Positions 11,329-36,700 are shown, numbered from the stretch's first letter. The stretch is DNA of 64,000 bases from Methanobacteriota archaeon (GCA_020697715.1 JAEHCO010000001.1:892490-956489); one strand, 5' to 3'. Translations and numbers: made by a program. The notes: a model not told the origin generated them from the letters alone.

Positions 11329-14300
11329 CTATGGTATTATCCAGGCATATGCTCCTGTGGAGTACACCCAGTATCCTTCACCGATCTGGAATTGATCGAT
11401 GTCCGGCATGACCTCTGTGTTATAGGCTGCTGCTCCATTGAAGCGCTCCACTGCTGTGACTGAGCCACCAGAATCTGTTTTCAGATCTCCGGCTGTGTAT
11501 CCCTCGACCTGTGATGGGAAACCGACCATGTTCCAGCCAGCCACCAGGTTTATCGTAGTACCTGATGGATTGACGCCAGTTACCTTGATAAAGCCATCTC
11601 CCACAGTGTCCACGAATATCCAGGCTCCCATTTCCTCATCCATGTAATTGTGGTTGATTCCAGGGAATGCCGAGATGTAGGTCTTCCAGTTGCTGCCGGG
11701 AGCTGCACTTCCATCATAGTGGTGGAAAGTGTTCCAGGTGGTGTCACCATCTGTATCCATCAGTGCATTTGGCAGAGATGTATCTCCAGGTAGTAATGGA
11801 AGTGAAACGAAGTTCCAGCCCGCTACTACAGGTATCAGATATTCCGGTGCTGTCACGGTGACTGTAACCGTAGTTACAGGTCCCCAACCATTTGGTCCGT
11901 TCCCACGAACACTCAAGATATGATCGCCAGCACCCCATGAGGACGTGTCAATGACCACTGTGAAGTTATCGAGTGGTCCATCCCAGAACAGATCGAATGG
12001 TGATGCTATTGCATTAGCCAGTCCTATGCCAGGATCGACAGTGTCGAACCATTCCGCACCATATAGGAATGGGAACACATTCTCGTCAACGGTCGTATTG
12101 TCCACGATATCCGCAGTTAGGGTGATAATGCCTGTTCCTATGGTTATGCTCAGTGGTGTTACACCATCAGCCAGCACATTGAAGGCTCCGGGTAGTGTAT
12201 CGAACTTGGAAACAATTCCCGAGTCTATACTATCGTATGTGCCATCTGTGGCAACCACGTAGTACCAGCAGTTCTCTGGATCCAGTATCTCATTGGTATC
12301 CACATACTGTGATGTACCAGCTCCAACGTTTCCAACCAGGCTGTATGGCCCTTCATACCACTCGCTATTTGCCTCATCGGCCTTGTAGATGTCATAACCA
12401 GTCACATCATATGCTCCAGCACCATCATCACTTGACAATGTCCATGTCAGTATCAGATCATCCGGACTTGTCGTGACGATAGTTTCCACATACATCTCAT
12501 CAATGCTGACCACATCTGCTGTAGTGGTGTCAGCTGGGTCGGTATCTCGGACTGCAACATAGAATGCTCCATTGAATCCAGCACCCAGGTCATATGAGAA
12601 TTGATCAAGACCTGGTGTTGAGTCTGTGGCCATTAGGGTCTCCTCACCTGCGAATGCTCCTGTCTGGGAGTAGTAATACTCGAAGGTATCATCGCCAGTG
12701 AATCCCGTGGTCGCGTAGAACATGTGTGTGCTGCCTGCAGGTACACCCTGGAACTGCCACTGATGCTCTAATGAATAAGAGGATCCTGCAGCACCATAAT
12801 CGTAGGTCACCCATACGTAGTCAAAGTATACTGCATCTGCTCCGCCTGGATCATTGTTGATGTAATGGACATCCAATGCCGCTATCTCCGCAATGGTGTC
12901 AACGCCATCTGCAAAAATATTATAGCTGGCCACTCGGTTATTATCACCATCGGTAGGCACAATACCTGTTCCCAACCAAGCACCTCCTTCGTTGATGGAG
13001 AATTCTACATCATTTGTGGCACCGTGGCCCGCCTGAGTAGAGAACTTCATCCAAAGGGTTGCTGCACTTACTGGATCGGGGTTTCCAGATGTGTCAAAAT
13101 TATCGATCCACATAATACCATTCTTGCCAATTGTGTTGGTTGTTCCGTCATCTCCATTGATCTGCGCGACAGTTGTTCCTGCTGTATCTCCAGCCTCTAT
13201 AACACTTGGCAGTGCATTGGCTGTTCCTCCGCCTGCTGAAAATAACTCAGTGATATCCTCTGTTACAGCATCTGCTGGCATCTGTGTCGCAGCATATGTG
13301 TTAACGATACCATTGTTTTCCACAGCTATATCACTGCTAGCTTGCTGGTAAAATGTTGATCCTGCACCTCCAGGCTGACTTAGAAGATCAGTTACTGGGC
13401 CAGGTGGCATCGAGTTCACAGTGTAGATATTGATCAATGTCTCATTGTTTATAGCCACTGCATCTCCTGGAAGCATGCTCATCACGGATATCTCGTACTC
13501 TGCCTCATCATCGAAGTCATACATCCAGTTCATCTGCTCGGTCTCGAGTTGAGCCAGCGTCAGAGTGGTGTCTTTAACATTAGTGTAGAGTGAACCCAGG
13601 CCTGCTGTCTTCTTCGATATCCTTATATCGTCAACATTCCAGCCAGTTCCACCACCTGCAAAGTCATCACAACCAGCCCAGTATCTTACCCAGACTGTAT
13701 TGTCACCAAGCCATGGTGTCAGGTCCACAGAATCTTCTACGAATCCTCCGCTTGCTCCGGTGAATGCATCAGCACCTCCGTCTCCATCTATTGGATTCGC
13801 ATATCCAGTTCCCAAAGCAGCATCATAGCCATTGGTCGATACGACCCTTGTCCATGCGGCTCCATCGGCACTGACATCCAGAACTCCGCCGTCCCAGCCA
13901 GCTTCCCAATCGTAGTTGTGGAACCATTTCCACTCTGCACTTGTGAAAGCTCCGGTCAGATCAAAGGGTCCGAATTCCAGTTTGTAGTCATGAGGTCCAG
14001 CCCCATAATTACCATTGCCGAAGTCCCATGATGTTGCCGGGCTATTGGCTGCATTCTCTCTCAGATCCCAACCAGGTGCGGCTGGTCCATCAGGTGTCCA
14101 GCCTGGTAGTATTCCACTTTCACAATCATCATTGAGTAGGTATGTGGTAGAGCCGAGATGATTGATCTCGATCTTTACTGGGAAAGGCCCTTGAGTTGTT
14201 GTTCCCGCATTCCCTATGGTTGCATCGATGGTTCTTGGTCCCCATTCATATGTGTTTCCATCGACCATTGAAGTGATACCGAAGCATCCGACATCCATTG

Positions 14301-16224
14301 GTGGTGCGATGTATATGTCCAGAGGGGCGATATTGTTGTTCTCATTGGATTCAGATATCGCATCAAGGTGATCTGGTATTATACAGAGTGCGTAATATCC
14401 CTCGTATCCTGTAGTATCCCAGTTGTAGGTGACATCGGATGTGCCTCCAGATGGTATGGTCCCTGCATTCTCCGTGCCTATTAGGGCACCGCCACTGGAT
14501 GGGTCTCCATCATATACGCCTACAATGACATCTGAACCGGTAGATGAACGTCCAGCATTGCTTACTGTTATGTGAACTGGGATGACATCTCCGCTATTTG
14601 GTGATGCAGAGTAGTTCAACCATGCATGAATGTATGATGGATTGTCCCACCATCCAGTTGGATAATTCGCAGGATTCAATGTAACTTCTCCTGTGCCATA
14701 ATCTAGGAAATAATCATCCCATCCGCCAGTACCAACTTCGAACATCTGCCACCAATCCCATGGGTCTGAACCGAACTCATTCTCATCTGCGAATATGGTG
14801 CAGTCAATTATATTGGAATATCCTAGGTTGAAAGATGTCTGGAACTCCACCATTGGGCCATATACTGTTTCATTGACCACTGCTAATGTTGGTGAATCAT
14901 AGTAGACATCTGATGCCTGGATGGCAACATCTGGAGTATTGTCTGCAAAGTCATAATAGACCGCCTGATGAACTTCCATTGTCTCTTCATCGTATATCGC
15001 GGCTATGACACCCAGCTCATCCAGGTTCCATGCGGGCATTGCCCCTCCACCAAGGTTAGCAGCTCTTACTACTGGGTTCCTGGAAAAGAATACATCCTGA
15101 TAGGTTATTGTTTCTCCCCTGTTAGTAAGTGTACCTTCAAGGGCCTCATCTGTACCCACCCACTGTTGCATGGAATATCTTATATTGTAATCCTTGACAG
15201 TGTATCCGGGACCTGTTGGTCCTAATGCATTGTTCCTCTGTACAACAGTGTTATAATCATCAACTATGAAGAAAGTGGTAACGAACTTGTCTGAATCATA
15301 ACCAAGGTCTCCCATGTTCCCAATTGATGATATGGCCAATGAGAAAGTCCCCTCCTCAAGGACATCGTCATATGAACCGTTCAATGTCATTGTCAGGTCA
15401 CTTGGTGTCGCGATCCTTGCATCCAAGTCTGTTTGAATGAACTCTGGAACTGCTCCTCCATCTCCATCCCATCTTCCTGTTGATGTTGAATCACAATCTG
15501 AGTAATAAGCACCACTGCCGTCATACTTTCCTCCAGCTCCACCATCTATGGCGAAACCACCGGCATTCATCAGATCATTTGCATCTCCTGCTGTATCTGA
15601 ATTAAGGTAAGCGGGGAATGTGTCCAGTCCATAAGGAGCTGTATAGTACTCTCTCATAGCAGCATCATCTGCTGGATCTCCTCCGAGAAGCCAATTGAAC
15701 TCTCCTGGAGCGAATTCCCAATCCTGCAATCCCCAATAAGATGCGCTGACGATGTTTCCATCCATCCAGCTGTTCAATTCCATAAGAGCGACATCATTCC
15801 TTGAGTAGGCCGCAGCCTGGTTACCTGCATATAGATACGCTGGTACAAAGGAACCATTGTCAATTCCAGATGCTATCTCAAGCAGAACGGTCCTGCCTGT
15901 GTCCACATCTGGGAACAGGGAATTTATTTGAGGAGGTTCTTCAGCTGCCAATATGACATTATCTCCCTCACTTGCTTTATAATCCGCTCTGTACTCGGTC
16001 AATTGTCTTATCCCGGGTGCAGAATCCAGAACAGTGCTTCCAGCCTTCATAGGTATTCTGTCAGCAACTATCTGCCGTGAAAGGTCAATGGATTCAGCAC
16101 TTACCAATGAATCTGAATTCGTAATACCAGATCCAATAAGTCCTGTAAGTGATGCCATTAGCATCACGATGATCAATATGCTTGCCCCAATTTTCTTATT
16201 TGTATGCATGCCCATTATATCCAT
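11329..16224 (-). CDS. Secreted non-S8 multidomain protein: Omp28-like domain, CARDB, jelly-roll domain, FN3-like domain and shared C-terminal domain (array gene 2)
   Basis: Start placed at MDIMG (GGAGGGA upstream); signal peptide; CARDB motif (ISESNENNN); GWDGG/WNVDDIRI jelly-roll; C-terminal GWNFVSLP...GWNMVGFP...GEGYWV. Confidence 0.75.
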   Translation of the reverse strand: MDIMGMHTNKKIGASILIIVMLMASLTGLIGSGITNSDSLVSAESIDLSRQIVADRIPMKAGSTVLDSAPGIRQLTEYRADYKASEGDNVILAAEEPPQINSLFPDVDTGRTVLLEIASGIDNGSFVPAYLYAGNQAAAYSRNDVALMELNSWMDGNIVSASYWGLQDWEFAPGEFNWLLGGDPADDAAMREYYTAPYGLDTFPAYLNSDTAGDANDLMNAGGFAIDGGAGGKYDGSGAYYSDCDSTSTGRWDGDGGAVPEFIQTDLDARIATPSDLTMTLNGSYDDVLEEGTFSLAISSIGNMGDLGYDSDKFVTTFFIVDDYNTVVQRNNALGPTGPGYTVKDYNIRYSMQQWVGTDEALEGTLTNRGETITYQDVFFSRNPVVRAANLGGGAMPAWNLDELGVIAAIYDEETMEVHQAVYYDFADNTPDVAIQASDVYYDSPTLAVVNETVYGPMVEFQTSFNLGYSNIIDCTIFADENEFGSDPWDWWQMFEVGTGGWDDYFLDYGTGEVTLNPANYPTGWWDNPSYIHAWLNYSASPNSGDVIPVHITVSNAGRSSTGSDVIVGVYDGDPSSGGALIGTENAGTIPSGGTSDVTYNWDTTGYEGYYALCIIPDHLDAISESNENNNIAPLDIYIAPPMDVGCFGITSMVDGNTYEWGPRTIDATIGNAGTTTQGPFPVKIEINHLGSTTYLLNDDCESGILPGWTPDGPAAPGWDLRENAANSPATSWDFGNGNYGAGPHDYKLEFGPFDLTGAFTSAEWKWFHNYDWEAGWDGGVLDVSADGAAWTRVVSTNGYDAALGTGYANPIDGDGGADAFTGASGGFVEDSVDLTPWLGDNTVWVRYWAGCDDFAGGGTGWNVDDIRISKKTAGLGSLYTNVKDTTLTLAQLETEQMNWMYDFDDEAEYEISVMSMLPGDAVAINNETLINIYTVNSMPPGPVTDLLSQPGGAGSTFYQQASSDIAVENNGIVNTYAATQMPADAVTEDITELFSAGGGTANALPSVIEAGDTAGTTVAQINGDDGTTNTIGKNGIMWIDNFDTSGNPDPVSAATLWMKFSTQAGHGATNDVEFSINEGGAWLGTGIVPTDGDNNRVASYNIFADGVDTIAEIAALDVHYINNDPGGADAVYFDYVWVTYDYGAAGSSYSLEHQWQFQGVPAGSTHMFYATTGFTGDDTFEYYYSQTGAFAGEETLMATDSTPGLDQFSYDLGAGFNGAFYVAVRDTDPADTTTADVVSIDEMYVETIVTTSPDDLILTWTLSSDDGAGAYDVTGYDIYKADEANSEWYEGPYSLVGNVGAGTSQYVDTNEILDPENCWYYVVATDGTYDSIDSGIVSKFDTLPGAFNVLADGVTPLSITIGTGIITLTADIVDNTTVDENVFPFLYGAEWFDTVDPGIGLANAIASPFDLFWDGPLDNFTVVIDTSSWGAGDHILSVRGNGPNGWGPVTTVTVTVTAPEYLIPVVAGWNFVSLPLLPGDTSLPNALMDTDGDTTWNTFHHYDGSAAPGSNWKTYISAFPGINHNYMDEEMGAWIFVDTVGDGFIKVTGVNPSGTTINLVAGWNMVGFPSQVEGYTAGDLKTDSGGSVTAVERFNGAAAYNTEVMPDIDQFQIGEGYWVYSTGAYAWIIP

Positions 16225-16602
16225 TCCTACTCCCTCCAAGATATCACGAATAAAGATGTGATATTGTTTTTATAAATCTCATATCTTGATTTCGAAGTTG
16301 AAAATATATATTGGAAGTAGGGCTATAAATAAGTATTCACTTAAAATATCATGGGTTTTTTATAATATATATATGTTTCTATATGATATATATATATCTT
16401 TGGGTTATCAATTGTTTGGTTGATTGAATTCAATATTATGAAAATTATATATATTGTTAATCTATTATACTATATATATTTTCCTATGGGATGTATTTAT
16501 ATGTTTCGCTCCGGCATTTTAACAATAGTTACTCGTCAGTTTTAAGAAAGAATCAACCCTCTATGCTGTTTGTAAAGGCTTGATAAAATAAAAAGTAAAA
16601 TG

Positions 16603-16626
16603 TGAGAGAGCCCGAAAGCTCTCTCA
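16603..16626 (-). terminator. Hairpin terminator after array gene 3
   Basis: TGAGAGAGC-CCGAAA-GCTCTCTCA; A-rich 5' flank on the + strand gives a U-tract on the - strand. Confidence 0.75.
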
Positions 16627-16644
16627 TTTTGCTTCTTTCTCTCA

Positions 16645-17061
16645 CTTACCAGTCCACAGTCCATATTGTTCCACTGCCGACCTTCACCCAGTACGCCTCA
16701 CCACGCTGTAGGACATAGTTATTCGCCAGTGTGATGATATTGTATGGCCCAGCACCGTAGCCCTCAACAGAGGTTGCTCCAGTATCTGCTTTGAGATCGC
16801 CAACATCATATGATGAATCATCCTGGGCGGGATAACCAATTAGGTTCCAACCAGTGTTCAGAGTGATGTCTGTATTTGTTGGTTCTTGACCCTCTCCGAC
16901 ACTCAGGAGTGCTCCGGCTGTTGTGAGCTTCACCCACATGCCCTTCGCATTGTCCACGGATGGCATATCCTGTGCTAATCCTGCAGCGAACTGTGCCTTG
17001 TCATAGGTCTTCCAATGGTCAGAAGCATCTGCTGGATCGTACCAGCAAACAACTTCCCATG
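16645..17061. repeat. ~417 bp exact direct repeat, copy 1 (copy 2 at 33314-33730)
   Basis: Line-by-line comparison shows identity up to the first mismatch at 17062/33731; similarity continues beyond it. Confidence 0.85.
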
Positions 17062-20000
17062 TGGTGTCACCATTACCCCAGTTCGCATCATCGAGAACTG
17101 TTAGCACATCTCCAGATGCTGTTATTGGGAATGAGACAAAGATCCAGTCTCCTGGCGCGGCTGTGCTGGTGTCGATGTCATATGGCACTGGTGCCACTCC
17201 TCCAGGTTCTGGCACTGCATTGGTGTTAGTATCCTCATTGCCAACATCATCCACTGCGCGTACGACATACCACCATGTGGTGACGTCGAACTCTCCCACG
17301 CCAGGATCCGTATATGTGTCGGTGCCTGCGGGTACACTGTCTATCAATGCTCCAGCATCCCATGGGCCGGCTGCATTATCAGCTCTGTAGATATTGTACT
17401 GAGCAACATCATCGGCTCCTGCACCATCATCTCCAGAAAGTGTCCAATTAAGGCAGTTATCATTCGTGCCGCCGGAAACAAGAGCCTCCACACGTACATC
17501 ATCGATATTCCATCCACAATATTGCCAGCTTCCATCACTGCCTCCTATTTCGAATCTTATGTAGACAGTTGCTTGGTTATCAGCCCATCCGGATATATCA
17601 TAGGTTTGTAGACCCCATGCGGAATCCGCTATAGTTGCTGTATTGGCCCATATCTCATTCCATGCCACTCCGTTTGTGCTGATCTCCAGATAAGCATGGT
17701 CATATAGTGGCTGTTCCACATTCAAATACCTCTGGAAGTAGAGAGTTGTGCCAGTTGCCAGGGAACAATCGATGGCTGGCGAGTATATGTAATTGGAATC
17801 TGTTCCCAGGTTTATTTCATAATCACCAGGATATGTACCAATTCCAGTAAGATCATTTCCTATGCTGAAGGTACCGCTGAACGCACCGTTCGGGTCTGCA
17901 TTTCCATAATTACCACCTAGTCCGCTAGGTGTATCTATTTCCCAGTCATTACTTCCGCCGCCAGTTGTCCATCCCAGTTCGGCAAAGGTCGGTGAGCCAT
18001 CGCCCTCGAAGTCTTCAAAGTAAACATCCTGGATAGCCTGTCCCCACCATTCCACTGTCAATCCAGTGACTGGCAAGACTCCACTATCTATCGTGGCAGT
18101 ATCTGTAACGGTTGCCGGGCCACTACCATCATTCAAGTCATTGTAGGTCGCGGTAATTGTGTCACCATTTGATACATGAAGAATTCCTCCGCCATCTGTG
18201 GCTGAAAGAGTGATCGTGCTCTCGAAAATACTTGTATCTGGGCCAGTTTCCGTGAGTGTCACGGTCTCACCCAATGGTTCCGTATTGCTGTTTATGTTGA
18301 TATTAACAGTCTCTGAAGACCCAGGGAGTGTGTTTAGATCGGTGTCGCCAACAGTTATCGTGGCCACATCTTCTCCAGCATAAACATTCTGATCCAGATC
18401 TATCGTTCCTTGCTGGGAAACATCCACTGCATTGTAAATGACCAGTGAATAATCCTGGTCGTCAGTACCATCAAAATCACAATCTCTTAGTATGTTAGTT
18501 CCAATGACCCGAACTGTATACTGGCCAACTTCAAGGCTTCCTGATGGAATATAAACACATTCCACATTGTTCACATTATCATATCCGTCTCCTGTGGTAT
18601 CCCAAATCGCTTGCGGGTCAGTATTTGCCGGTGTCCAGCCATTTAAGAATGCATTACCATGGTATATGTCACCCAATGGGCTCTCTATTTCAAGGTTAAC
18701 TTGATTCTGAAGCGTTGGGTTCGCACCACCCGTTGCATATAGGTCTGTGTATGCCAATGTGATCTTCAATGGCTCTGATGCATCGGCATATGAGAATGTG
18801 AATTCATCTGTCACGCCTGGTGTCAGTTCACCTACTTCGTCCTTTAGGATAAATGGTGCGGGAGGATCCATAATTGTTGGCAAGAACATCCTTCCCCATC
18901 CTTCATCTCTGTTTGGTATGTCCGCTGCGCCAATATCCACTGCTGTGTTTATTGTCAATGCCTTGGCCATGGAAGGTGTTATGATCTGACCGTATGTGGC
19001 CAGATACCATTCGTATATCACTGCAACACCGCCGGCCACTGTTGGGTTGGCCTGGGATGTTCCAGAGCACCACTCGTATCTATTATCATCATCGTAAGTT
19101 CCATATAGACAGTCTATGGAAGCATCTGTGGAGCGGGGAGAAAGTGTTCCAGAACCTGCTGCAACAACATCTGGTTTTATCCTATTATCATCGGTCCAGC
19201 CCCTTGAGCTGAAATCAATGATCTGATCTGGATTGTCAGCATCAGTGTTCGGATCAACATCGTTTCCATAGTTAGCCATGTCTGGCCAGTAATTCTCTGT
19301 CGCTCCCACCGTTATAACATTCTTCGCATTGCCAGGACTGCCTATGGTATTGGTCCCTGACCCATCATTGCTCGCTGCAACGGTGATTATCAATTGTTGG
19401 TTTCCAGCTGCATTGTCATCCGCATCCCTGACCGCATGGTCATATGCTTCATCACGAGCGTCATATGCCCCATATGTTGAGCCGCCCCATGAATTAGAGT
19501 GTACCATCACACCAGCTCTTTGGGCATCTTCTAAAATTGTATAATAATCTGCTGGGCCTGCCCAACCGCCAGCATCAGTGAATATTTTCTGTGCATATAT
19601 CTCGGCATCATATGCCAATCCCATTCCAGCGTAGTAGTCGCCGAATCCACTGTGAGTTACACCAGTTCCTTCGAAACCATTGGCAACTATAAGACCTGCA
19701 CAATGCGTCCCATGGCCATGTCCATCTGCCCAGTCGCCTGCTCCATATTCAGTTCCACCAATCACTCGATTTTCAAAATCAACATGGTTCGCATCCCCTG
19801 TGGTCCCGTCGCCTATGCCTGTATCTGCAATACCTACGATAACTCCATCGCCCGTCCATCCAAGGTGATTGACATATGTTCCGAATCCACCTCCTGTGTC
19901 TCTGTATGGTGTGTCTGGGTCACTATCTGGATCATCAACCCAAAGGAAGCCACCAATCTGTTGCATGCCGGATTCATCTTTAAGTTCATTCTCGATGTAT

Positions 20001-20524: not shown

Positions 20525-20737
20525 TTTACCTTCTCCTTCCCTACACATCGAGAACCCTTGCCAGGTTCTCGAAAATGTAAATTCGATTTCCTTTGTTCAT
20601 TAAGTATTGGATAAAAAATAAATGTATAACATGCTATAAATAATTAGTTGTATAGTTTTTTCAACTAATTTTTTACTATTAATGTTTTTTGATAGAACCA
20701 TATAAAATAGTTTTGTCTATTTTTATAAATTGAAAAT

Positions 20738-20762
20738 ATGAGAGAGTCGAAAGCTCTCTCAT
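20738..20762 (-). terminator. Hairpin terminator after array gene 4
   Basis: ATGAGAGAGT-CGAAA-GCTCTCTCAT. Confidence 0.75.
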
Positions 20763-20777
20763 TATGCCCTCGCTCGC

Positions 20778-23700
20778 TTACCAGTCCACAGTCCAGGTAA
20801 TATCCGAAGATACATAGACCCAGTACGCCTCTCCACGCTGTAGGACATAATTGTCATCCAGTGTGATGATATTGTATGGTCCAGGACCGTAGCCCTCAAC
20901 TTTGGTTGCTCCAGTCGCTGTCTTCAGATCCAGAACATCGTAGATTGAATCATCCTGGGCCGGGTAACCGATGAGGTTCCAGCCAGTTTGCAGATCAAAG
21001 TTCGTCGTGCTTATTGGAATAAATCCTTCTCCAACAGTTAGTTCTGTCCCAGCTAATGAGAGTTTCACCCACATGCCCATAGTATTGTTGACATCTGGCA
21101 AGTCCTGTGCTATTCCAGCGGTTGCCTGTGCTTTGTCATAGGTCTTCCAGTGGTCTGCATCTGTCGGATCATACCACACGATGACCTCCCATTCAGTGTC
21201 ACCATTGCCCCAGTTCGCATCATCGAAAACTGTCAATACGTCGCCGGATGCAGTTATTGGGAAGGATACGAATATCCAATCACCTGGTGATGCCGCGCTG
21301 GTGTCTATGTCATAATATGGTGGTTGCGGACTAAATTCTGGAACTGAATTAGTGTTGGTATCCTCATTTGATGAAAAATCCTCGGCTCTAACAATATACC
21401 ACCAGAGTGTGGCATCTGCCATACCTGCTCCCATGTCAACCCAACTGGTTGTTCCAGATGGAACTGTATCCATTAGGGTCCATGGACCGATAGCAGTGTC
21501 GGATCTGTAGATATTGTACTGCTCCACATCTGGTGAGACGGACTCTGTCCAGCTCACAGTATTGTGGTCTGTAGGATCACCATCCACTGTCCAGCTAAAA
21601 CCAGCTATATTGGTATTTCGAGCTGCTGAGCCCCATTCCGCCATACTGCCAACCTGTGCAAGGCCTGCTACTTTTAGGTAGTAGCTGCAGGTCCATGCAG
21701 ATGCATCCAGCTGAGTTGCTCCAAGCACATTTGTGGTAAATGTCTCCCTCAATGTAGTAGGTGGTGAGCTTGTGGATACATATAGCCTAACAACTATCGA
21801 GTCTCCAGCATCCAGTGGAGTTACAGGTGGTGTCCATGTCGCGGTGTTTATACCTTCAGACTGAACAAGCCTGCTTGCAATACCAACTGCGGTTCCAGAT
21901 GTTATCTCTGTTTCCACACCTGCACTGCTTCTTTGCCAAACTCTTATTCCTGCATAGACTGGAACACGGTTACCCATGTTACCTGTGTTTGTTGCTGTAA
22001 TAGACTGGGTCAGATCGAGTGAGTCAGCTGCCAATCCATTGACATTCACTGCTGTAGTTGTGAGATATCTCTGCTCAACTGTGGAAGAACCTGCTGGCCC
22101 ATCATATTCCACGGTAAGTCCAGTCACCGGTACAGGTGGTGTTGTGTCAATAGTTGTGAAGGTCCATGTATCAGATTGTGTCGAGCCTGTTGCATCAGTT
22201 GCTATCGCGTACCAATTGTATGTGGTTTCTGAGAGCAGTGCTATTGCGCTGGTTGTGGCTGTGGCTCCGCTTGCAACTCCAACCACGGATGCGAATGGTG
22301 TGTCAGAAGGTGACCAGTAGAATACAATATTCATTGGATCTGATTCATAATCAGAAACATCAACGCTGAATGCCTTGCTCACTGGTACATCGAGCTCTCC
22401 ATCATATGGATCCGGGTTGGTAGGTTCATCCGGCCGTCTTGGTGCATCGATCAGTATCTCGGTCTCGGTCCAGTCTCCCCAGTTACCCTGGTCATCCTGT
22501 CCCTGGACCCATATCTTGTGCCATCCGCCTACCCAGCCAGTGGTATCAATGTGAGCTCCACTTACAGCTGCCTCGGCTGGAGAGCTGAATAATCCATCTG
22601 CTGGTGTCATTGAGACCGGTATTGGATTGACATCTGTCTTGTACTGAACCGCGGCAATATTATTGCCGCCGGTCTGCCAATCTTGTACATTGGCCATGAC
22701 CATGACTATTTCCCCAGGCGAACAAAATACCTTGTCTGTAAAGGCTTGTTCAGTTATTGGCCCCAGAATGTCTGGTTCGGTATCCCAGCCATTATAAACA
22801 TGCATGGCGACTATGTCTTGTCCGCCTTCTTTCACGAACTGGTTCTGTGCAATAAGTACCGTATTGGAGTTCTCCCATGATGCAGATCGCTGCTTGCCCT
22901 TGGTATAACTGTCAAGCGTCAGGTACTGCACCTTTGTAGCCACGCCACCCGTGTAGTCGTCGTCATAGAACATCAATAAATTCGTCTGGCCATATGGGTC
23001 GTACCTGGCATTTCTGTGCATGAACACATACATGTAATCATCTACTGTGTAATCCATGTCCAGAAGGAACCTTGATCCATAATCATGGTCACTCGCTACA
23101 GGCCCATATGGCCCGTATCCCAAATTTGCATTGTTATCGAAACTGTCTCCGCCATCATCGGTCCACATGACAATAACACTTCTGTCACCATCTGTGTTCG
23201 CACCCTTGAGGTAGGCACCATAGTTCCTATTGCCATTAACACCCTGGTTTGCGGATACGCCTTGTGGGAACATCAGATTGTCAGGAGAATTAAGAGCTGT
23301 CTTCATTGAGCTCCATGATCCAGTGTAATACTGGAATGTCGCGTCCCTGTCCTGGGCCGCTTCTCCACTGTCCCTTTCATAGTACCAAAGTGCTATGTTG
23401 CCGAGGTGATCTGTGTATGCATGCGGGAAGAAATAGTACATGCCAACTACACCTGGATCTATTCGTGTCAATGCAGACCATGTAGCTCCTCCATCAGAGG
23501 ATGATTTTCCTATTGCTGAGATAGAGACCAAGGAAGCAGTGCCTATGTCAGTACTTGAGTAACCGAAGTCCTCAACTATCAGATAGAATTGATCTCCATT
23601 TGGATACCATACTATGTTGGTCGTCCTGTATGTGTCTCTGCCAGCACTAACTACGCCTTCACCCTCAATGAAAGCATTTGACAATGTCCATGTGGTGTAA

Positions 23701-26759: not shown

Positions 26760-26859
26760 TTATCTCTCTCCTTCATTGAATTATATGTATATGGTATTCA
26801 TTTCTATTTATACCTACGGTTAATGATGGTTTAGTAAAAAGATAATATAAATTGAAAAT

Positions 26860-26884
26860 ATGAGAGAGTCGAAAGTCCTCTCAT
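26860..26884 (-). terminator. Hairpin terminator after array gene 5
   Basis: ATGAGAGAGTCGAAAGTCCTCTCAT, an imperfect member of the same hairpin family. Confidence 0.65.
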
Positions 26885-26905
26885 TCATATTTCGCTATGG
26901 CAGTT

Positions 26906-28702
26906 CTAAGGTATTATCCAGGTATAGACTCCAGTCGAGTACACCCAGTAAGCTTGTCCTATCTGGAATTCATCTACGTCGGGCATTATCTCCATATGGT
27001 ATGCCGCAGCATCATTGAACCTCTCAACAGATGTCACCAAACCACCAGAATCCGCTTTCAGGTCGCCAGCAGTGTAACCTTCTGTCTGTGATGGGAAGCC
27101 CACCATATTCCATCCAGCCTGCAGCTGGATGCTGGTTCCTGATGGTTCAAATCCTTCTCCGACTGTCAGGAATGGATCATCAGCTCCACCACCCGCATTA
27201 ATAATTCGTACCCATAGCCCCATCTTATTGTCCACGTTTGGCATATCCTGGGGTATGCCAGCAGTTGCTTGGGCTATGCTATAGGATTTCCAATGGTCGA
27301 TCGGATCAGTTGGATCATACCAATGGATCATGTTCCATGTGGTTCCTCCATCACCCCATGCTGCGTCATCTATGACCGTCAGTACATCCCCTGTGATATC
27401 TGTCGGGAATGAGACAAAGACCCATTGCTTGTCAGAAGCTCCTATCAGATCGATATCATATACATGTGCCGTAGCATATATGATGGTCACATCTGGTGTT
27501 CCAGGTGCTGCCTCGGTCTGTGGTGAATTATCTGATGCCATGGTGTATATATCATATGTTCCTGGGCCATCCGGGAAGTCAAAGCTCCAGGAACCACTGG
27601 CCACGGTTCCCGCTATCATAGCTGGATCATTTGCATCTTCCCATGATGCATAGCCACTGCCATCGAATTGATAGAATAATTCGATCTGTGTCAGATATAT
27701 ATCGTCTGTTGCTGACCAGTCGATCATAACTGTATTGGCGGATGTTGGGGATGCTCCAGTGTAGGATGCTGATGAAACAGGTGCTGAATCAGGTATATAT
27801 ATTGGCTCTGGCACAGAATTGGTGTTCGCATCTTCGTTTCCAATAATATCCTCCGCTCTTACCACGTACCACCACTGAATTCCGTCTGGAATTCCCATGA
27901 AAAAGTCTGTGTATGTATCTGTACCTGCTGGAACACTGTCTATCAGGGAACCAGCATCCCATGGGCCGTCGGGGTCAATAGATCTGTAAATATTGTATTG
28001 AAGTATATTATCTGCTCCAGCTCCATCGTCTCCGTCCAAGGTCCAATTAAGTGTATTATGGTCGGTTGGGACATTGGGGTTTCCACCAAGTATGTACATA
28101 TGATCTATGAGTATACTGTCAGCCCAGGTCTTATCGGTCCCATCTACTACTGTATCAATGAAGGTTACATCGACGATATCCCCTGGCGCGACTCCTGTAA
28201 GCAATGCCGATGTGTAGGCATCTGTGTCCGATGGCATGGTCACAGAACCTGCACTTTCTATCGCTCCTCCATTAACTGAATATGATATCGCCATCTCTTC
28301 AGATGATGTGTAGGCATCCAGGTATAAAGTGTATGGTCCAGTTCCTGAAGGGTCGATGTTTATTGTATATGTGATATTAAGTCGGTATTTCCGGCCTCCA
28401 CCGCCAGTACGCACTTCATCTGTCCTGTCATGTGTATCATCCTGCGTATTGGTGTTTGTGTGATTGGTAGAAGATTCGCCTGTTGTTATTAATTTTGAAA
28501 CAGTTATGTCTTCTGTATTTGTCACCACACCCCACCACTCGACCGTCAGGTCACTGGCCAATATCATGTCTCCATCTATGGAACTGATATTGGTGATCGG
28601 CCCGCCTACATGATATTCTACTAGGCTCATCGAGTTTGCTGACACCAGCAAACTAATTGATATTACAAATACGAATGTCAAGCCCACAAATTTATTGCCC
28701 AT
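26906..28702 (-). CDS. Secreted non-catalytic protein: signal peptide, FN3-like domain with insert, Ig-like domain and shared C-terminal domain (array gene 5)
   Basis: Start MGNKFVG with GGAG upstream; no S8 motifs; C-terminal half closely similar to array gene 6. Confidence 0.75.
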   Translation of the reverse strand: MGNKFVGLTFVFVISISLLVSANSMSLVEYHVGGPITNISSIDGDMILASDLTVEWWGVVTNTEDITVSKLITTGESSTNHTNTNTQDDTHDRTDEVRTGGGGRKYRLNITYTINIDPSGTGPYTLYLDAYTSSEEMAISYSVNGGAIESAGSVTMPSDTDAYTSALLTGVAPGDIVDVTFIDTVVDGTDKTWADSILIDHMYILGGNPNVPTDHNTLNWTLDGDDGAGADNILQYNIYRSIDPDGPWDAGSLIDSVPAGTDTYTDFFMGIPDGIQWWYVVRAEDIIGNEDANTNSVPEPIYIPDSAPVSSASYTGASPTSANTVMIDWSATDDIYLTQIELFYQFDGSGYASWEDANDPAMIAGTVASGSWSFDFPDGPGTYDIYTMASDNSPQTEAAPGTPDVTIIYATAHVYDIDLIGASDKQWVFVSFPTDITGDVLTVIDDAAWGDGGTTWNMIHWYDPTDPIDHWKSYSIAQATAGIPQDMPNVDNKMGLWVRIINAGGGADDPFLTVGEGFEPSGTSIQLQAGWNMVGFPSQTEGYTAGDLKADSGGLVTSVERFNDAAAYHMEIMPDVDEFQIGQAYWVYSTGVYTWIIP

Positions 28703-28894
28703 TTTCCAACTCCTCATTCATTTATCACTAAATGACGTCCTATATATTTAAAAATGTCCTATATATAAGTATTGAGCAAAACACCGACTTATACACCATC
28801 GCATTAACAATCGATGACCATCCATCTCGGTGCAGATTCACAGATATGGAAAGTTAAATCAGTGTTGTGAAATTATGGATAAAAATTGAAAAAG

Positions 28895-28918
28895 TGAGAG
28901 AGCCCGAAAGCCCTCTCA
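28895..28918 (-). terminator. Hairpin terminator after array gene 6
   Basis: TGAGAGAGCCCGAAAGCCCTCTCA. Confidence 0.7.
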
Positions 28919-28940
28919 TTCATATTTCGTTATGGCAGCC

Positions 28941-31900
28941 CTAAGGTATGTTCCATGCATAAGCTCCAGTCGAGTACACCCAGTAGGCCTGTCCTATCTG
29001 GAATGCATCCCCATTGGGCATGGTCTCGATATTGTAAGCCGCGGCATCATTGAACCTCTCTATCGAGGTCACCATTCCTCCAGTTGCGGCTATCAGATCG
29101 CCCGCGGTGTACCCCTCGGTCTGTGATGGGAAGCCCACCATGTTCCAGCCAGCCACCAGGTTTATTGTGGTTCCAGATGGATCAAATCCTTCTCCAACTG
29201 TCAGGAACACATCATCTGGTGGTCCGCCTGCATTTACCAGGTGCACCCACAATCCCATTGTGTTGTCTAGATTTGGCAGGTCTTGTGTGAGACCAGCCGC
29301 TGCCTGTGCCTTGTCATATGCTTTCCAGTGGTCCGTAGGGTCTGTTGGGTCATACCACATTGTGGCATCCCATGTTGTTCCGCCGTCACCCCATGCTGCG
29401 TCATCGATCAAGGTCAGGACATCCCCTGTTACATCTATTGGGAATGATATGAAGACCCATGAATTATCGCTAGCTCCGGTCAGATCGATGTCGTAGACCT
29501 GGATCGGTATGTATAAGATAGTCACATCTGGAGTTCCAGGTGCGCCCTCGGTCTGTGGGAGATCATCGGTCGCCCTGGTGTAGAAGTCATATGTTCCAGC
29601 ACCATCCGGGAAGTCAAAGCTCCAGGAGCCCGAGTCTGCGGTTCCTGACGCAGTTGCTGGGTTAGTGCCATCGGCCCATGAGGAATAGCCACCACTGTCG
29701 AACTGGTAATATAGTTCGACCTGTGTGAGATCAATGTCATCGGTCGCGGCCCAGTTGATCGTAACTGGATTATTGGGTGTTGGTGATGCTCCAGCATAGG
29801 ATGCTGATGAAACAGGTGCAGAATCAGGTACTGAGCCGGGTTCTGGCACTGCATTTGTGTTTGTATCTTCATTGCCAGCTCCGTCCTCTCCTCTCACGAT
29901 GTACCACCACTGTGTTCCATCTGACATTCCACGGTCAATGTCTATGTAGGTGTCTGTACCGGCTGGCACAGTGTCTATGACTGACCATGGTCCACCAGAA
30001 TTATCAGCTCTATAGATATTGTAACCTACAACATCATCAGCTCCTGCGCCATCATCACCAGACAATGTCCAGTTCACTGCATTGTGATCTGTTGATGTTG
30101 ACATGGCTGACCATGTGAAGCCCTCTATCCTGGTATTAGCTGTAGTAGAGCCCCAGGACACCCTATCCGCATTGTTCCTCTCAGATAGGTAAGAATAGAA
30201 GGTCCAAGTGGCTGCATCCAATTGTGTCGCGCCCAGTACCTCGGTTGTGAAGGTCTCCACCAGAGTGGTGGGTGGACTGGATCCACCACAATACCATTCC
30301 ACCACTATGGAATCTGTGTCTGATACTGTGGTCTGCGGACAATCCCATGTCGCGCTCACTGTTGCAGTCGTGGATGTACTGGCTATGGCAACAGGACTAC
30401 CGCCTGTTATCTCCGTCATTGCGCCTCCACTGGCCCGGGAGTATATCCTAATTCCTGAATAGATCGTACTGGTGCTTGATAATGTCACTGTTTGAGTGGT
30501 CGCACTCTGTGATGTTCCCAGGGAATCACACGTCAATCCATTCACAGTTGCCGAGTCCGATCTCATGAACCGAGTCTCGGTAGATCCCGCTGATGGTGCC
30601 CACCATTCGACAGTAAGTCCGCTGGTGGGAGCCACGCCCGCATCCACAGTTGCTGTATCGGTCACGGTCGCGGGTCCACTCCCATCAAATGCATCATTGT
30701 AGGTCGCGGTTATCAGGTCTCCATGTGATACCTGAAGGATACCGCCTCCATCTGTTTGGGAAAGTGTTAGTGTTCCAACAAAGACACTGGTATCTCCACC
30801 AGTCTCTGTCAAGGTCACACTCTCTCCGCCTGGCTCTGAGGTAGATGTCACGGTTATCGTGGTCGTCTGGACATTCGTATTTGTGTTGAGGTCCGTGTCG
30901 CCAACAGTTATTGTGGCTGTATCCTCTCCAGCATATACATTCTGATCCAGATCGACGGTTCCCTTCTCGGACACATCTTCGCAGTTGTACATGACCAGTG
31001 AGTAATCCTGGTCATTGGATCCGTCATTGTCACAGTCTGCTATTATGTTCGTTCCTATGATACGGACTGTGTACTGGCCAACTTCGAGTTGGCCCGGTGA
31101 GAAGTAAACACACTCGACATTGTTCCTGTCATCGTATCCATCTTGATTGGTGTCGAAGGTGGTGCTTGGGTTGCCAGTGGTGGAATATCCACCACTGAAG
31201 GCATTACCGTGGTATATTGTTCCCAATGGGCTCTCAACTTCCAGATTCACCTGGTTCTGAAGGGTTATAGTTGCACCGCTCTCAGCGTAGGCGTCTGTGT
31301 ATACCAGTGTGATCTTTACAGGCTCTGATGGGTCAACATATGAGAATGTGTAGCTATCTATGTCAATGGGATTATCGGGTATCAGCTCACCTGGATCCTG
31401 AAATATCATGAATGGTGCTGCCTGGTCAATTATTGGCATTATGTTCATTCTTCCCCAGCCTTCATTCTGGTTTGGTATATCCGCTGTGCCGAAATCCTCT
31501 GCTGTGTTGATCATAAGTGCCTTCACGGTTGCTGGTGTGGGTGCCATTCCATATGTGTAATCATACCATTCATAGACCACTGCACCGCCGCCTGCTGCTC
31601 CTGGGCAGGACTGGCTTGTTCCCGTGCACCAGGTATATCGGTCATCTGGTGTATAATCACCAAACAGTCCCTCATTGACCAGGGGGCTGCTGAGCGATAA
31701 AGTGTTCTGTCCAGGTGTTAGGATATCTGGCTTGATCCTGCCATCATCTGTCCATCCTCTTGAACTGCTGGCATACATGAGATCTGGACTAGTTGCATCA
31801 ATGGAGTATGTATTACCATAAGAGTCCGCATCCGGCGCATAGTTCTGTACTCCACCCACTGTTATTATGTTCTTGGCATTTCCTGGGCTTCCAATAGTGT

Positions 31901-33074: not shown

Positions 33075-33272
33075 CTTCAAACCTCTCCATTTAACGAATA
33101 AAGTGAATGTTGCCCACATCACTCCAACGATCTTAGTACATTTCCTATATTTTCAGAAATCCACATCGATTTATTTATAGTTAAGCTTTTTGGTATATAG
33201 TATATATAGATATGTAATTTGTATGATAAATAAGATATATTATCAGACGAATAATGTCAAAAATGTAAAAAT

Positions 33273-33296
33273 TGAGAGGGTTGTTAAGCCCTCTCA
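33273..33296 (-). terminator. Hairpin terminator after array gene 7
   Basis: TGAGAGGGTT-GTTA-AGCCCTCTCA. Confidence 0.7.
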
Positions 33297-33313
33297 TTTT
33301 GCTTTGTCAGTCG

Positions 33314-33730
33314 CTTACCAGTCCACAGTCCATATTGTTCCACTGCCGACCTTCACCCAGTACGCCTCACCACGCTGTAGGACATAGTTATTCGCCAGTG
33401 TGATGATATTGTATGGCCCAGCACCGTAGCCCTCAACAGAGGTTGCTCCAGTATCTGCTTTGAGATCGCCAACATCATATGATGAATCATCCTGGGCGGG
33501 ATAACCAATTAGGTTCCAACCAGTGTTCAGAGTGATGTCTGTATTTGTTGGTTCTTGACCCTCTCCGACACTCAGGAGTGCTCCGGCTGTTGTGAGCTTC
33601 ACCCACATGCCCTTCGCATTGTCCACGGATGGCATATCCTGTGCTAATCCTGCAGCGAACTGTGCCTTGTCATAGGTCTTCCAATGGTCAGAAGCATCTG
33701 CTGGATCGTACCAGCAAACAACTTCCCATG
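33314..33730. repeat. ~417 bp exact direct repeat, copy 2
   Basis: Identical to 16645-17061 by eye. Confidence 0.85.
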
Positions 33731-36700
33731 AGGTGTCACCATTACCCCAGTTCGCATCATCGAGAACTGTTAGGACATCTCCAGATGCTGTTATCGGGAA
33801 TGAGACAAAGACCCAATCCCCTGGCGCGGCTGTGCTGGTGTCGATGCCATATGGCACTGCTGGAGTTCCACCAGGCTCCTGCACAGCATTGGTGTTGGTA
33901 TCTTCATTGCCAAGGACATCCTCGCCCCTGACCACGTACCACCACAATGTTCCATCTGGTAGTCCTTTGTCCAGATCTGTGTATATGCCTGTGCCTGCTG
34001 GTACACTGGCTATGTAAGCTCCTGCATCCCATGGGCCAGCTGCATTATCAGCTCTATAAATGTTGTATTGAACCAGATCATCTGCTCCTGCTCCATCATC
34101 GCCGGATAAGGTCCAGTTGACAGTATTGTGATCATCTGGATTGGTTATCAGGGACCAGCTAAAGCCATCTATTCTGGTGTCGCGGGCTGTCGTGCCCCAT
34201 TCTATCGTACTACCACCCTGGCCTGTTCCTGCCACTACCAGGTAGTAATTGCAGGTCCATTCACTCGCATCAAGCTGGCTGGCTCCAAGTACATTTGTTG
34301 TGAATGTCGCCCTTTCCGCGGTAGGTGGTGAGCTTGTGGATGCGTATAATCTAACGACTATCGAGTCGCCCAGGTCCAACTGAGTTGCTGGTGGTGTCCA
34401 GGTAGCGGTGTTTATTCCTTCCGATGAAACTGTTCTTCCAGCAATACCAACTGCAGTTCCGGATGTGATCTCAGTCTCTACACCTCCACTGTCCCTCTGC
34501 CAGACCCTTATGCCTGCATAGACTGGAGCACGGTTACCCAGATTACCTCCGCTCTGCATTGTTGCTGACTGGGTGGTACCAAGTAAATTGGCTGCCAATC
34601 CATTGACATTGACTTCACTGGATACACCTCTCATGTATCTTGTCTCTATGGTCGAGTCACCAGGACCCCAGTACTCCACTGTTAGGTCGCTGGTCGATGC
34701 AACTCCTGCATCGACTATCGCGGTGTCTGTTACAGTAGCTGGTCCTGATCCGTCATCCGCGTCATCGTATGTCGCGGTAATGACATCATTGTGAGATACC
34801 TGGAGTATTCCTGCTCCATTGGTAGCTGATATCGTGATGGTTCCCTGGAATGTGCTGGTGTCATCTCCAGTTTCTGTGAGTGTAACAGTTTCAACACCAG
34901 TTTCTGTGTCACTGTCGATGTCCACGACAACGGTCTGAGGTGAGTTGGTGTTCGTATTGAGATCCCAGTCCATTACCTGGATCATCACTGTGTCCTCGCC
35001 AGCATATAATTCTTCATCTAGCTGAATAGAACCTTGAGAGGTGATTGGTATCATTCCACCAGATACGACAAGAGAGAAGTCCTGGGGGCCCTGGGCTACG
35101 TCCCCAGTTCGTCCATATACTTCCACTGTCCAGATACCGCTCTGTGGGTTCTGAACGAAGACATTTTCCAGATTGTTGAGGTCATCTCTGTGATCCGAGC
35201 CCCACTGGTTCGCTCCTGTTCCAGAAGCTGAGTAAAGGCTTGTCCACAAGCCATTGTTACCATAATATTCCACTCCACCTGGTGATATGACCTTCAGGTC
35301 TAGGTTATTGATCAATGCTCTTGCCGCATTGGTGGTTCCAAGTGCGGCAGGGTCTGTCCAGGCAAGTGAGATCTTCAATGGGTAAGTACCATCGACATAG
35401 GTCTGGCGTGAGTACATATTGCCTGAGTCCAGTGCCTGTGGGTATTCATCAATTTGATGATACTGAGCTCCCAGATTATACATGTATTCCATGTCTGGTG
35501 TTCCCCAGCCCTGCTCATTTCTTGTTGCATCTCCCAGATCATACTGGTATGCATCTGCCACCAAGAGGGCCTTGATAGTGCTTGAATAAGGAAGTTCTCC
35601 CAATGGGTTTGTATCGAAGTAATTCTCCTGCCACATATCATAGGCGATAACAGCTGAACCAGCTACGATGGGCGTCGCGCCACTTGTTCCACCAAAGTCA
35701 TCATAATAATCACCACTAGCATAGCCGCCAACTCTGTTGTCCACCGTGTATATCCAGTCAAATGGCGCGCACATCTCCGGCTTCTGTCTGCCATCTGCGG
35801 CTGGTCCTCTTGAAGGTGTATTTCCCTGTGATTGCAAAAGCCACTCATCATCCGCCATGTTCGCGGTGTTCTTGTGGAATATGGCTCCTATTGCCATGAC
35901 GTTCTTTGCACAGGCATCTTCGCTGAGATCTCCCTCGGCGGTTCCATCATTACCATTGCCGTTTGCCCAGAGAGATAGGACCTTTGGATAATCCACTGCT
36001 GCCTGATCATCAGCTGCAGCATTTATCTGATATAGTCCATCCTGTGTTCCGGAGCTCCATGAATTTGATTGGACGATGCCGTTCATCCCGGCACTTCCTT
36101 CATTGAAATTTCCATTCCAGAGATTTTCAATGGAAGTGTATCTTCCAGTTCCCCAGTCGGAGAAAACACCCACTGCTTCATAAGCAATTCCAAGTGCGTC
36201 GATGTCACCAGCTCCATTTCCGAAGACGATACCTGATGTGCAGGTGCCGTGATCATCATTTGATACTGATCCATCTGTGTATATGACATTAGCGAGATCC
36301 GGATGGCCAATGTCTATTCCATTGTCCTGAACTTCGGCCAGCATACCAGCGCCAGTGAATCCCACTGCTTCGGTGGTATCATGACCCATGAATGTATTGG
36401 ATGTGATAAGATTCATATATGCTTCTGGCTCCGCATCATGGCCGACAGATCTGACCTCTTGGATCTCAGCGATGGAATTGATCTTGGATGCGTCTATCGT
36501 GCATCTTAGGTATGTGAAACCTGTATTGACCTTGATATCACTGGCTCCCAGTTCCTCCAGGGATGCCATTGTTCTGAGTATTCCAGCATCTTCATGCAGG
36601 ACCACTATGACATCGGTCATGCCGGACTTTCCATCCAGGTCTGGATTGATCTTCATTGAGGAGATATATGGTTGAATATTATTCGAATATGTCATAAGAA

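Follow-up and report, generated by a model that had tools for sequence, protein, structure and literature searches.

Within a 64,000-nucleotide (nt) stretch of DNA (JAEHCO010000001.1:892490-956489; hereafter the window) from the metagenome-assembled genome of an uncultured Thermoplasmata archaeon, eight long minus-strand open reading frames (ORFs), g1 to g8, lie in a row. In all six of the proteins g2-g7 we find a fibronectin type III (FN3)-like domain that is interrupted after its first strand: a short strand motif is followed by 152-303 unrelated residues (the passenger) and then by a conserved FN3 remainder of ~90 residues. We propose, with a probability of roughly 0.7, that this is a nested-domain FN3 display socket, whose passengers have been diversified by ordinary recombination among paralogues, not by programmed switching. 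An earlier note, made by reading this DNA, had described a split FN3-like domain in the same six proteins; its motifs are found where it placed them, and its insert coordinates match those derived here to ~7 nt in all six genes.

An FN3 domain split around a passenger

Five genes have LTVE[WY] as their strand motif; g2 has VTDLL, and its strand A was assigned from position and pattern only. The remainder carries the block NWT(L/E)S(G)DDGAG..V..YNIYR...WWY.VR, of which the g4 remainder lacks the GDDGAG loop. The features, with positions counted from the first letter of the window, are as follows.

18041..18061 (-): g3 FN3 strand A, LTVEWWG, amino acids (aa) 830-836; placed by motif position and AlphaFold2 (AF2) model (inside strand E8-25)
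17471..18040 (-): g3 passenger, MAM-like jelly roll, aa 837-1026; sub-cut-off Pfam match and structure matches
17201..17470 (-): g3 FN3 remainder, strands B-G, aa 1027-1116; alignment A1, weak PDB profile matches, structure matches
16649..17200 (-): g3 C-terminal tail domain, aa 1117-1300; 99% aa identity to the g7 tail, no Pfam family
34665..34685 (-): g7 FN3 strand A, LTVEYWG, aa 755-761; AF2 strand E8-13
34143..34664 (-): g7 passenger, 'VNGL' all-beta module, aa 762-935; no Pfam family
33870..34142 (-): g7 FN3 remainder, aa 936-1026; alignment and structure matches
33318..33869 (-): g7 tail, aa 1027-1210
21330..22118 (-): g4 split FN3; strand A 22098-22118, VNGL passenger 21576-22097, remainder 21330-21575
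27800..28549 (-): g5 split FN3; strand A 28529-28549, T3 passenger 28070-28528, remainder 27800-28069
29835..30617 (-): g6 split FN3; strand A 30597-30617, VNGL passenger 30099-30596, remainder 29835-30098
12193..13395 (-): g2 split FN3; presumed strand A VTDLL 13381-13395, double passenger 12472-13380, remainder 12193-12471

The shortest of these proteins, g5, runs from signal peptide to slot, Ig-like domain and tail.

That the two flanks belong to one domain is suggested by AF2 models of g7 aa 746-1210 (465 aa; 22 rows in the multiple sequence alignment, MSA) and g3 aa 821-1121 (301 aa; 20 rows), both MSAs having been cut from related genomes. The mean predicted local distance difference test (pLDDT) score was 84.5 for the g7 model and 75.4 for the g3 model, the latter with two low-confidence loops within the insert. 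Both were compared by structure alignment (VIA) with 48,161 PDB chains, and the figures given here cover the best 50 rows for each. For g7, 50/50 rows were single FN3 domains (Z 10.2-12.6, 85-106 residues aligned), with alignments that began at model residues 1-5 and finished at 279-282, apart from two finishing at 390-391 with a root-mean-square deviation (rmsd) of 4.2; examples are 1k85 (88/88 residues, rmsd 2.2) and 3mpc_B (92/96). For g3, 28 rows were FN3 domains over residues 1-3..295-301 (87-104 aligned, Z 10.5-12.6), 20 were MAM or jelly-roll folds over ~18-22..202-208 (Z 10.6-14), and the last two covered both domains at rmsd >18. The 88-residue domain 1k85 (88 and 87 residues aligned) fits the models only by way of the N-terminal strand together with the remainder ~180 residues further on. 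In both predicted models, a seven-strand FN3 sandwich that includes strand A can thus be superposed on solved FN3 domains. In the secondary structure (DSSP) of the g3 model, strand A and the opening strand of the insert form one unbroken strand (E8-25), as do the closing strand of the insert and strand B (E192-216); because strands run across both insert borders, the passenger in this model would sit on a two-stranded stalk. The models therefore support the view that the flanks make up one FN3 domain surrounding a nested passenger domain, and the AlphaFold check that the earlier note had proposed comes out in its favour for g3 and g7, solved FN3 chains fitting strand A plus remainder. A profile built from the six remainders (alignment A1) also gave weak FN3 matches in the PDB, to 2yux (E=0.013) and 3mpc (E=0.045), the former starting at chain residue 33, which is its B strand.

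Sequences from elsewhere point the same way. A database search with the remainder returned 3741 representatives, 95 of them at E<=1e-30, and the best 150, a few of which are the genome's own proteins, were inspected. They include 49 strong FN3 remainders, and in 39/49 the pattern P(T/S)GLTV(E/Q/D)(W/H) lies 149-373 residues upstream. In one (P0144) the strand motif is just 5 residues upstream, giving a contiguous, insert-free FN3 (...PTALTVEHWGP-VPP-TDHNTLNWTAS...; contiguous FN3 stretch ...PTALTVEHWGPVPPTDHNTLNWTAS...). The strand pattern was not found upstream of the other nine of the 49; in three of these a cut N-terminus lies no more than 130 residues ahead, and the other six have insert-like sequence directly preceding them. 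Loci from more distant genomes of the class (L039, L040, L041) carry a DDGAG-type FN3 that is uninterrupted. Across 20 slots holding several insert subtypes (alignment A3), strand residues L10, T11, V12 and W14 are invariant.

It could nevertheless be argued that nothing is nested: LTVEW would be part of the preceding domain, of a linker or of the passenger, and these proteins would be tandem domains with an FN3 that lacks strand A. Several points favour this and weigh against our proposal. Pfam fn3 (PF00041) matches 0/6 remainders at E<=10, and whole g2-g7 proteins give no fn3 match at E<=0.01 (g1 has one elsewhere in the protein, at 18.9 bits, under the cut-off of 25), so that the FN3 identity of the remainders is drawn from weak profile matches and predicted structure. 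The pairing of strand A with the remainder is deduced from aligned ranges and lengths, not from contacts or predicted aligned error; the first 20 residues have a pLDDT of just 67-76 in the g7 and g3 models; and since each row of the MSAs contains both flanks, the models do not test the hypothesis independently. Set against these points, whole FN3 chains, strand A included, superpose only when model residues 1-14 take part, and the motif is invariant despite four different contexts before it: a beta-sandwich (g3, g6, g7), an FN3-like domain (g4), a signal peptide (g5) and an FN3 of the same type (L056, L062, L072). Moreover, the motif is missing from free-standing VNGL modules, and P0144 joins the flanks directly. 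We consider it improbable that the flanks belong to separate domains.

Passengers, tail and distribution

Inserts from the database representatives and from this genome fall by blast into MAM-like (28), VNGL (6), T2 (5), T3 (the g5 type; 4) and T4 (4) clusters plus 2 singletons, and loci from relatives add three further singleton types. There are at least five passenger sequence families plus singletons, two of them Pfam-confirmed (InhA-like MAM and lamin-tail); the VNGL, T2, T3, T4, T6 and T7 inserts match no Pfam family. The contents of the six slots in the window had been read correctly in the earlier note: g4, g6 and g7 share the VNGL module (aa identity g7-g4 70%, g7-g6 45%, and 64% between g7 and the paralogue on contig C33), the g2, g3 and g5 inserts are unrelated to it (16-23% aa), that of g2 is double, being T2 plus a second module, and the g3 model matches MAM and jelly-roll folds at Z 11.5-14.

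The g3 insert matches Pfam InhA-like_MAM (PF20773) with E=6.6e-4 and 19.7 bits, under the 26.9 cut-off; a protein on contig C22 exceeds it with the passenger in its second slot (31.5 bits, E=1.6e-7). The g3 model aligns with MAM folds at Z 11.4-12.7 and with reelin subrepeats at Z 13.4-14; the structures matched by the passenger include meprin, neuropilin, the RPTPmu MAM domain and InhA2 (7uab Z 12.1, 5l73 Z 11.8, 2c9a Z 11.6, 4yu5 Z 11.4), together with carbohydrate-binding modules (CBMs), a gingipain K1 adhesin domain and ephrin-receptor ligand-binding domains. Because the fold is shared with CBMs, the K1 adhesin and ephrin-receptor ligand-binding domains, we infer from fold and family that the passengers may bind ligands, a shared fold not being proof of function. 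A lamin-tail domain (PF00932; 46.1 bits against a cut-off of 34.3) occupies the slot of P0109, a database representative from outside the window, at aa 532-627, between a strand A motif at 519-526 and a remainder that begins at 699.

The C22 protein just mentioned (G000:C22:156865-161763; L005, L006; 1633 aa) has two split FN3s in series: a T4 passenger sits in the first, and the second holds a double one of 373 residues that ends in the InhA-like MAM; its head is metallophosphoesterase-like by eye.

Some passengers also occur outside any slot. In this genome these are VNGL (C22:217633-223185), T2 with the second g2 module ('EHxW', which recurs free-standing and repeated in C28:228017-235810) and T4 (g8 aa 771-945). 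VNGL is present in 15/22 genomes of the order, and 21 of its 30 loci are nested, with the other nine lacking a following FN3 remainder. As judged by homology, these occurrences show the passengers to be autonomous domains. In PDB and BFVD, Foldseek matched the VNGL insert and the tail only to arrays of several FN3 or Ig domains, at TM (template modelling) scores of 0.1-0.2, and the VNGL passenger has no fold match of its own among the best 50 PDB rows for the g7 model, all of which are filled by FN3. In the ESM Atlas its nearest clusters are unnamed and mostly viral (0.90-0.92, low recognition), which we take as a lead only.

We picture g2-g7 as members of a large family of secreted or surface multidomain proteins, with heads that are S8 subtilases and others and with a shared C-terminal tail. 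The chain would leave the FN3 domain after strand A, form an autonomous all-beta domain of 150-370 residues and return for strands B-G; because it exits and re-enters between strands A and B, a stalk of two strands would hold the passenger in a constant position directly ahead of the tail. Such passengers are of kinds that bind ligands elsewhere (MAM/CBM-like jelly rolls, a lamin-tail domain and at least three unnamed beta modules), and most likely target each enzyme or adhesin to its own substrate or surface.

The tail itself (~180 residues; 16649-17200 in g3, 33318-33869 in g7) contains two W.F(V/I)S.P / GWN(L/M)(I/V)G(Y/F)P motifs and belongs to no Pfam family. A hidden Markov model finds it in 27 ORFs of this genome, and it is C-terminal in 25, the exceptions being g8 and C22:2162-7654; the nearest ESM Atlas clusters are unnamed and archaeal (0.95, again a lead only). 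Its probable role, shared across this archaeal group, is in attachment to the surface or in sorting.

As far as sequence searches reach, the split-FN3 arrangement is common across this archaeal order. This genome has ten strong copies: the six in the window, two in the C22 protein, one at C11:109834-112344 and one on C33. Matches to the FN3 remainder at E<=1e-10 occur in 27/41 related genomes (20-23 per genome at most) and, among the four families of the order, in 20/21 other genomes; a database search with the g7 remainder gave 19 related loci, 6 of them close archaeal. A larger array lies in G007, another genome of the order (C4:1-36000; L050 and L051): a single stretch of contig there has at least eight strong FN3 remainders, and the array includes several two-slot proteins and three adjoining, near-identical VNGL-type genes.

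Replacement of passengers and its limits

Within this genome, slot content does not go with C-terminal similarity, as the module identities bear out. Gene g7 resembles g6 before the slot (76% aa), g4 in the insert (70%), and g3 in both the remainder (73%) and the tail (99% over the last 175 residues); the g7-g4 remainders are 51% identical, and the tails 75% (g7-g4) and 51% (g7-g6). By comparison, g4 and its C33 paralogue are congruent in all modules (68, 63, 70 and 69%). Two pairs of tails had been singled out as very similar; that of g3 and g7 stands, while 'near-identical' was an overstatement for g5 and g6 (75% aa, ~65-85% nt).

In 60-nt windows, g3 and g7 are 100% identical from ~17033 to 16674 and 98% identical from 17093, which makes ~420 nt at 98-100% (~16674-17092 in g3, ~33343-33760 in g7). 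Upstream of this, identity is 78-86%, with one 61% window, to 17448 at the 3' edge of the slot, and the inserts are ~50% identical. This profile points to a very recent conversion tract inside the tail, and to an older one ending where homology ends. Direct DNA repeats in the window occur only between the paralogous genes themselves.

Such tracts raise the question of an assembly artefact, in which a metagenome assembler would have joined paralogues across repeats and so made chimeric genes: the genome (2.12 Mb, 93.8% complete) is in 34 contigs, and g3 and g7 share their near-identical tract of ~420 nt. However, the array lies inside a 956-kb contig, the same architecture is found in 27/41 independently assembled genomes and in database representatives, and module borders that differ between genomes are not at the identical repeat. 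We regard this as the least probable of the explanations considered here.

Genome G003, from the same genus and 94% complete, has a syntenic array (g8, g7', g6', g3', g2') in which slot contents have been replaced. Per 30 residues, the identity of the g3 and g3' proteins is 83-100% along the greater part of the head, drops to 56-76% immediately ahead of the slot and to 16-36% in the insert, and is 63-96% after it; in nt, identity is 85-94% to ~aa 707 and 57-72% from there to aa 823, falls to 50-56% in the insert, and then rises to 65-74% in the remainder and to 76-93% in the tail. The two inserts are of different MAM subtypes, 22% identical in aa and with many indels. An insert in G021, from another family of the order, shares 73% identity with that of g3, and one in G031, from another family of the class, shares 72% with that of g3'. 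Because the two are only 22% alike and each is 72-73% like the insert of another lineage, we conclude that the insert at the g3 locus has been replaced. The g7 pair was compared by protein profile, because differences in length make the global nt alignment unreliable past the slot. Their heads are 84% identical to aa 761, just past LTVEYWG, after which g7' continues with a T3 insert, one additional Ig-like domain and a tail of the g5/g6 type; the same is seen in G001 and G002. Thus the alternative insert/tail combinations that the earlier note suggested looking for in sister genomes do exist. The slots of g2 and g2' differ in part (148 vs 306 residues between g2 aa 998 and 1146), and g6 and g6' retain the insert (83-90%) and differ in the last ~110 residues of the tail (26-50%).

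The idea of recombinational exchange is therefore upheld in part: replacement between congeneric genomes, with both outer flanks kept, is seen, but the edges of the slot are not supported as general breakpoints. In the clearest case, the low-identity tract between g3 and g3' runs from ~aa 707 to ~1097 and takes in the domain before the slot and the FN3 remainder.

How far exchange has gone is limited by a second group of observations, which count against our proposal. On a maximum-likelihood tree of 55 distinct FN3 remainders (89 columns), the 8 insert types require 10 type changes where the minimum is 7; shuffled labels require 26.3 on average, and 0/200 shuffles were as low as 10. Because insert type clusters on this tree (10 vs 26.3 changes), remainders mostly travel with their own insert. 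The exceptions come from this genus: here g6 and g7 have VNGL-type remainders that group with the T3 type. The approximately unbiased (AU) test rejects a single clade of all VNGL-type remainders only marginally (p-AU 0.026), and does not reject the grouping of g3 with its insert relatives (p-AU 0.138), 89 columns giving it little power. Orthology with G003 is taken from synteny and best matches in metagenome-assembled genomes. On sequence grounds, exchange is rarer than had been implied, and free shuffling of inserts is not upheld, the remainder tree tracking insert type across the 55 slots.

These limits could be pressed further, to a history without any exchange, in which passengers diverged in place within a vertically inherited slot and tail-homogenising conversion produced the look of a mosaic. 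Such a history would agree with the insert type largely following the remainder tree, with tails that are clearly converted and with the AU result for g3. It accords poorly with the g3 and G003 inserts, so unlike each other between flanks of 84-94% nt identity and each so close to an insert of another family-level lineage, with g7 orthologues that differ in insert family (VNGL vs T3) and with unrelated Pfam families (MAM and lamin-tail) at the same position. We think it unlikely.

At the other extreme lies programmed cassette switching, of the pilin or variant-surface-glycoprotein kind or by shufflons or diversity-generating retroelements, in which the flanks would be recombination sites and swaps frequent within a population. 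The same flanks surround different passengers in tandem paralogues, the g3/g7 conversion is very recent, and insert/tail combinations differ among congeneric genomes, all of which such switching would explain. Yet the recent tract lies within the tail, not at the slot, and FN3 remainders mostly co-vary with their insert. The A-strand codons of the six genes vary at third positions (CTT, CTG, CTA, TTG; ACA, ACC, ACG, ACT), and because they vary so freely, the flank is conserved as protein and not as a DNA site; this runs counter to the earlier suggestion that conserved flanks serve as recombination substrates. Nor did searches reveal the dedicated cassette system that had been suggested. All 85 tblastn matches of seven inserts and six remainders in the genome (85/85) lie inside 18 ORFs of >=450 aa, with no silent or partial cassettes such as a pilE/pilS-type system would hold, although in a genome 93.8% complete a silent copy could lie on missing sequence. 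There were 0 minus-strand blastn matches within 6001-42000 at E<=1e-3, and a family scan of the 21 other window ORFs gave no recombinase, integrase or reverse-transcriptase family; inverted matches and a recombinase would be expected of a shufflon or invertase, and a reverse transcriptase and a nearby template repeat of a diversity-generating retroelement. Programmed switching thus seems to us highly improbable.

We favour instead the ordinary recombination of our proposal, in which diversity would arise by homologous recombination and gene conversion among many paralogues, with occasional acquisition from farther away, and selection would have retained only those junctions that respect domain borders.

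Known systems and the gene array

Gram-positive pilus tip adhesins of the RrgA type have a vWFA domain inserted in a CnaB or Ig-like stalk domain. The split FN3 would work in the same way, with a putative ligand binder placed between the strands of a beta-sandwich stalk domain and displayed sideways from a surface protein; here, however, the host is an FN3 domain interrupted after strand A, the passengers are other domains, of at least five unrelated families at one position, and the proteins are archaeal and carry enzymes instead of building pili. The insulin receptor (4zxb_E), which is among the FN3 structure matches of the g3 and g7 models (chain range 593..804-807), has an insert domain in the C-C' loop of FnIII-2. 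It too keeps its sandwich intact around a long insertion, but that insert is in another loop, largely disordered and of a single type, whereas folded domains of several types are found here.

Cell-envelope S8 proteinases such as streptococcal C5a peptidase combine an S8 domain holding an inserted PA domain with FN3 domains and a wall anchor. Like them, the array encodes large secreted subtilases (Peptidase_S8 in g3 and g6) with FN3 spacers, a nested domain and a C-terminal attachment region; unlike them, it nests passengers of variable family in FN3, where theirs nests PA in the protease, and ends in an unnamed tail (27 ORFs). InhA (an M6 peptidase) and metazoan MAM proteins share the fold of the g3 passenger, and the second-slot passenger on C22 passes PF20773, but their MAM domains stand in tandem (RPTPmu has MAM, Ig and FN3 in series) and not nested in FN3; a two-domain superposition of RPTPmu on the g3 model has an rmsd of 18.7. 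With pilE/pilS, shufflons and diversity-generating retroelements, our system shares alternative variable segments between conserved flanks of surface proteins; it differs in that machinery and silent copies were sought and not found, that a whole folded domain varies and that, as far as is visible, it does so on an evolutionary time scale. A full-text literature search, which did not extend to subscription journals, found no description of a split or interrupted FN3 or of these archaeal proteins.

Domain nesting is known, usually as one host with one guest. Here one small host domain takes many guests at a fixed position. The arrangement recurs in hundreds of proteins across an uncultured order of archaea, and replacement is seen between sister species. 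In terms of protein evolution this would be a natural insertion hot spot, at which recombination and selection for foldable junctions yield mosaic surface proteins; for engineering, it suggests that whole-domain insertion after FN3 strand A is tolerated; and in the ecology of these archaea from sediment or the water column, the passengers probably determine which targets are held by the extracellular subtilases and other surface enzymes. No new kind of genetic switching system is revealed. A bolder reading, which we offer tentatively and on balance doubt, is that one Thermoplasmata FN3 subfamily is a natural plug-in socket, whose A/B position accepts at least five and probably at least eight unrelated families, two sometimes in tandem, and that the movement of passengers between paralogues and lineages is the main route by which the specificity of secreted hydrolases is retuned. 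If true, this would amount to a general insertion rule, which the engineering of FN3 (monobody-type) scaffolds could adopt.

The eight ORFs of the array span 6314-41400 and range in size from 603 to 1993 aa. Those from g2 onwards are:

11329-16239 (-): g2 ORF
16646-20548 (-): g3 ORF
20778-26759 (-): g4 ORF
26906-28717 (-): g5 ORF, 603 aa
28941-33122 (-): g6 ORF
33315-36947 (-): g7 ORF
37219-41400 (-): g8, 1401-aa frame

Peptidase_S8 (Pfam cut-off 21.8 bits) is found in g1 (106.5 bits), g3 (142.5), g6 (113.3) and g8 (49.2), and the Pfam scan gave none at E<=0.01 in g2, g4, g5 and g7. CARDB occurs in g2 (Pfam), and the heads of g4 and g7 align weakly by blastp with those of other array proteins. 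The common ~180-residue domain terminates g1-g7 and lies inside g8, which is the sole member to extend ~240 residues past it (tail at 981-1161 of 1401); g8 has no split FN3, and its T4 module is free-standing. Housekeeping genes surround the array (an ATP-citrate-lyase-like protein, isocitrate dehydrogenase, an archaeosine-TGT-like protein, L15e and RFC).

In g5 the signal-peptide region (28629-28705) matches the beginning of g7 (36865-36941) at 85.7% identity over 77 nt, and g5 looks like a carrier without its entire enzymatic head, retaining signal peptide, slot, Ig-like domain and tail. Downstream of the g4 and g5 stop codons, 20724-20763 and 26846-26885 are 95% identical over 40 nt, and downstream of those of g3 and g6, 16588-16628 and 28879-28920 are 90% identical over 42 nt; these elements may act as terminators common to the genes or mark where conversion tracts end. 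Outside the array, a 1449-aa ORF at 46418-50767 (+) has a strong purine skew (AT skew ~0.4), and its product, which matches no Pfam family, is extremely E/K/L-rich and coiled-coil-like, with a CxxC...CxxC motif near the N-terminus.

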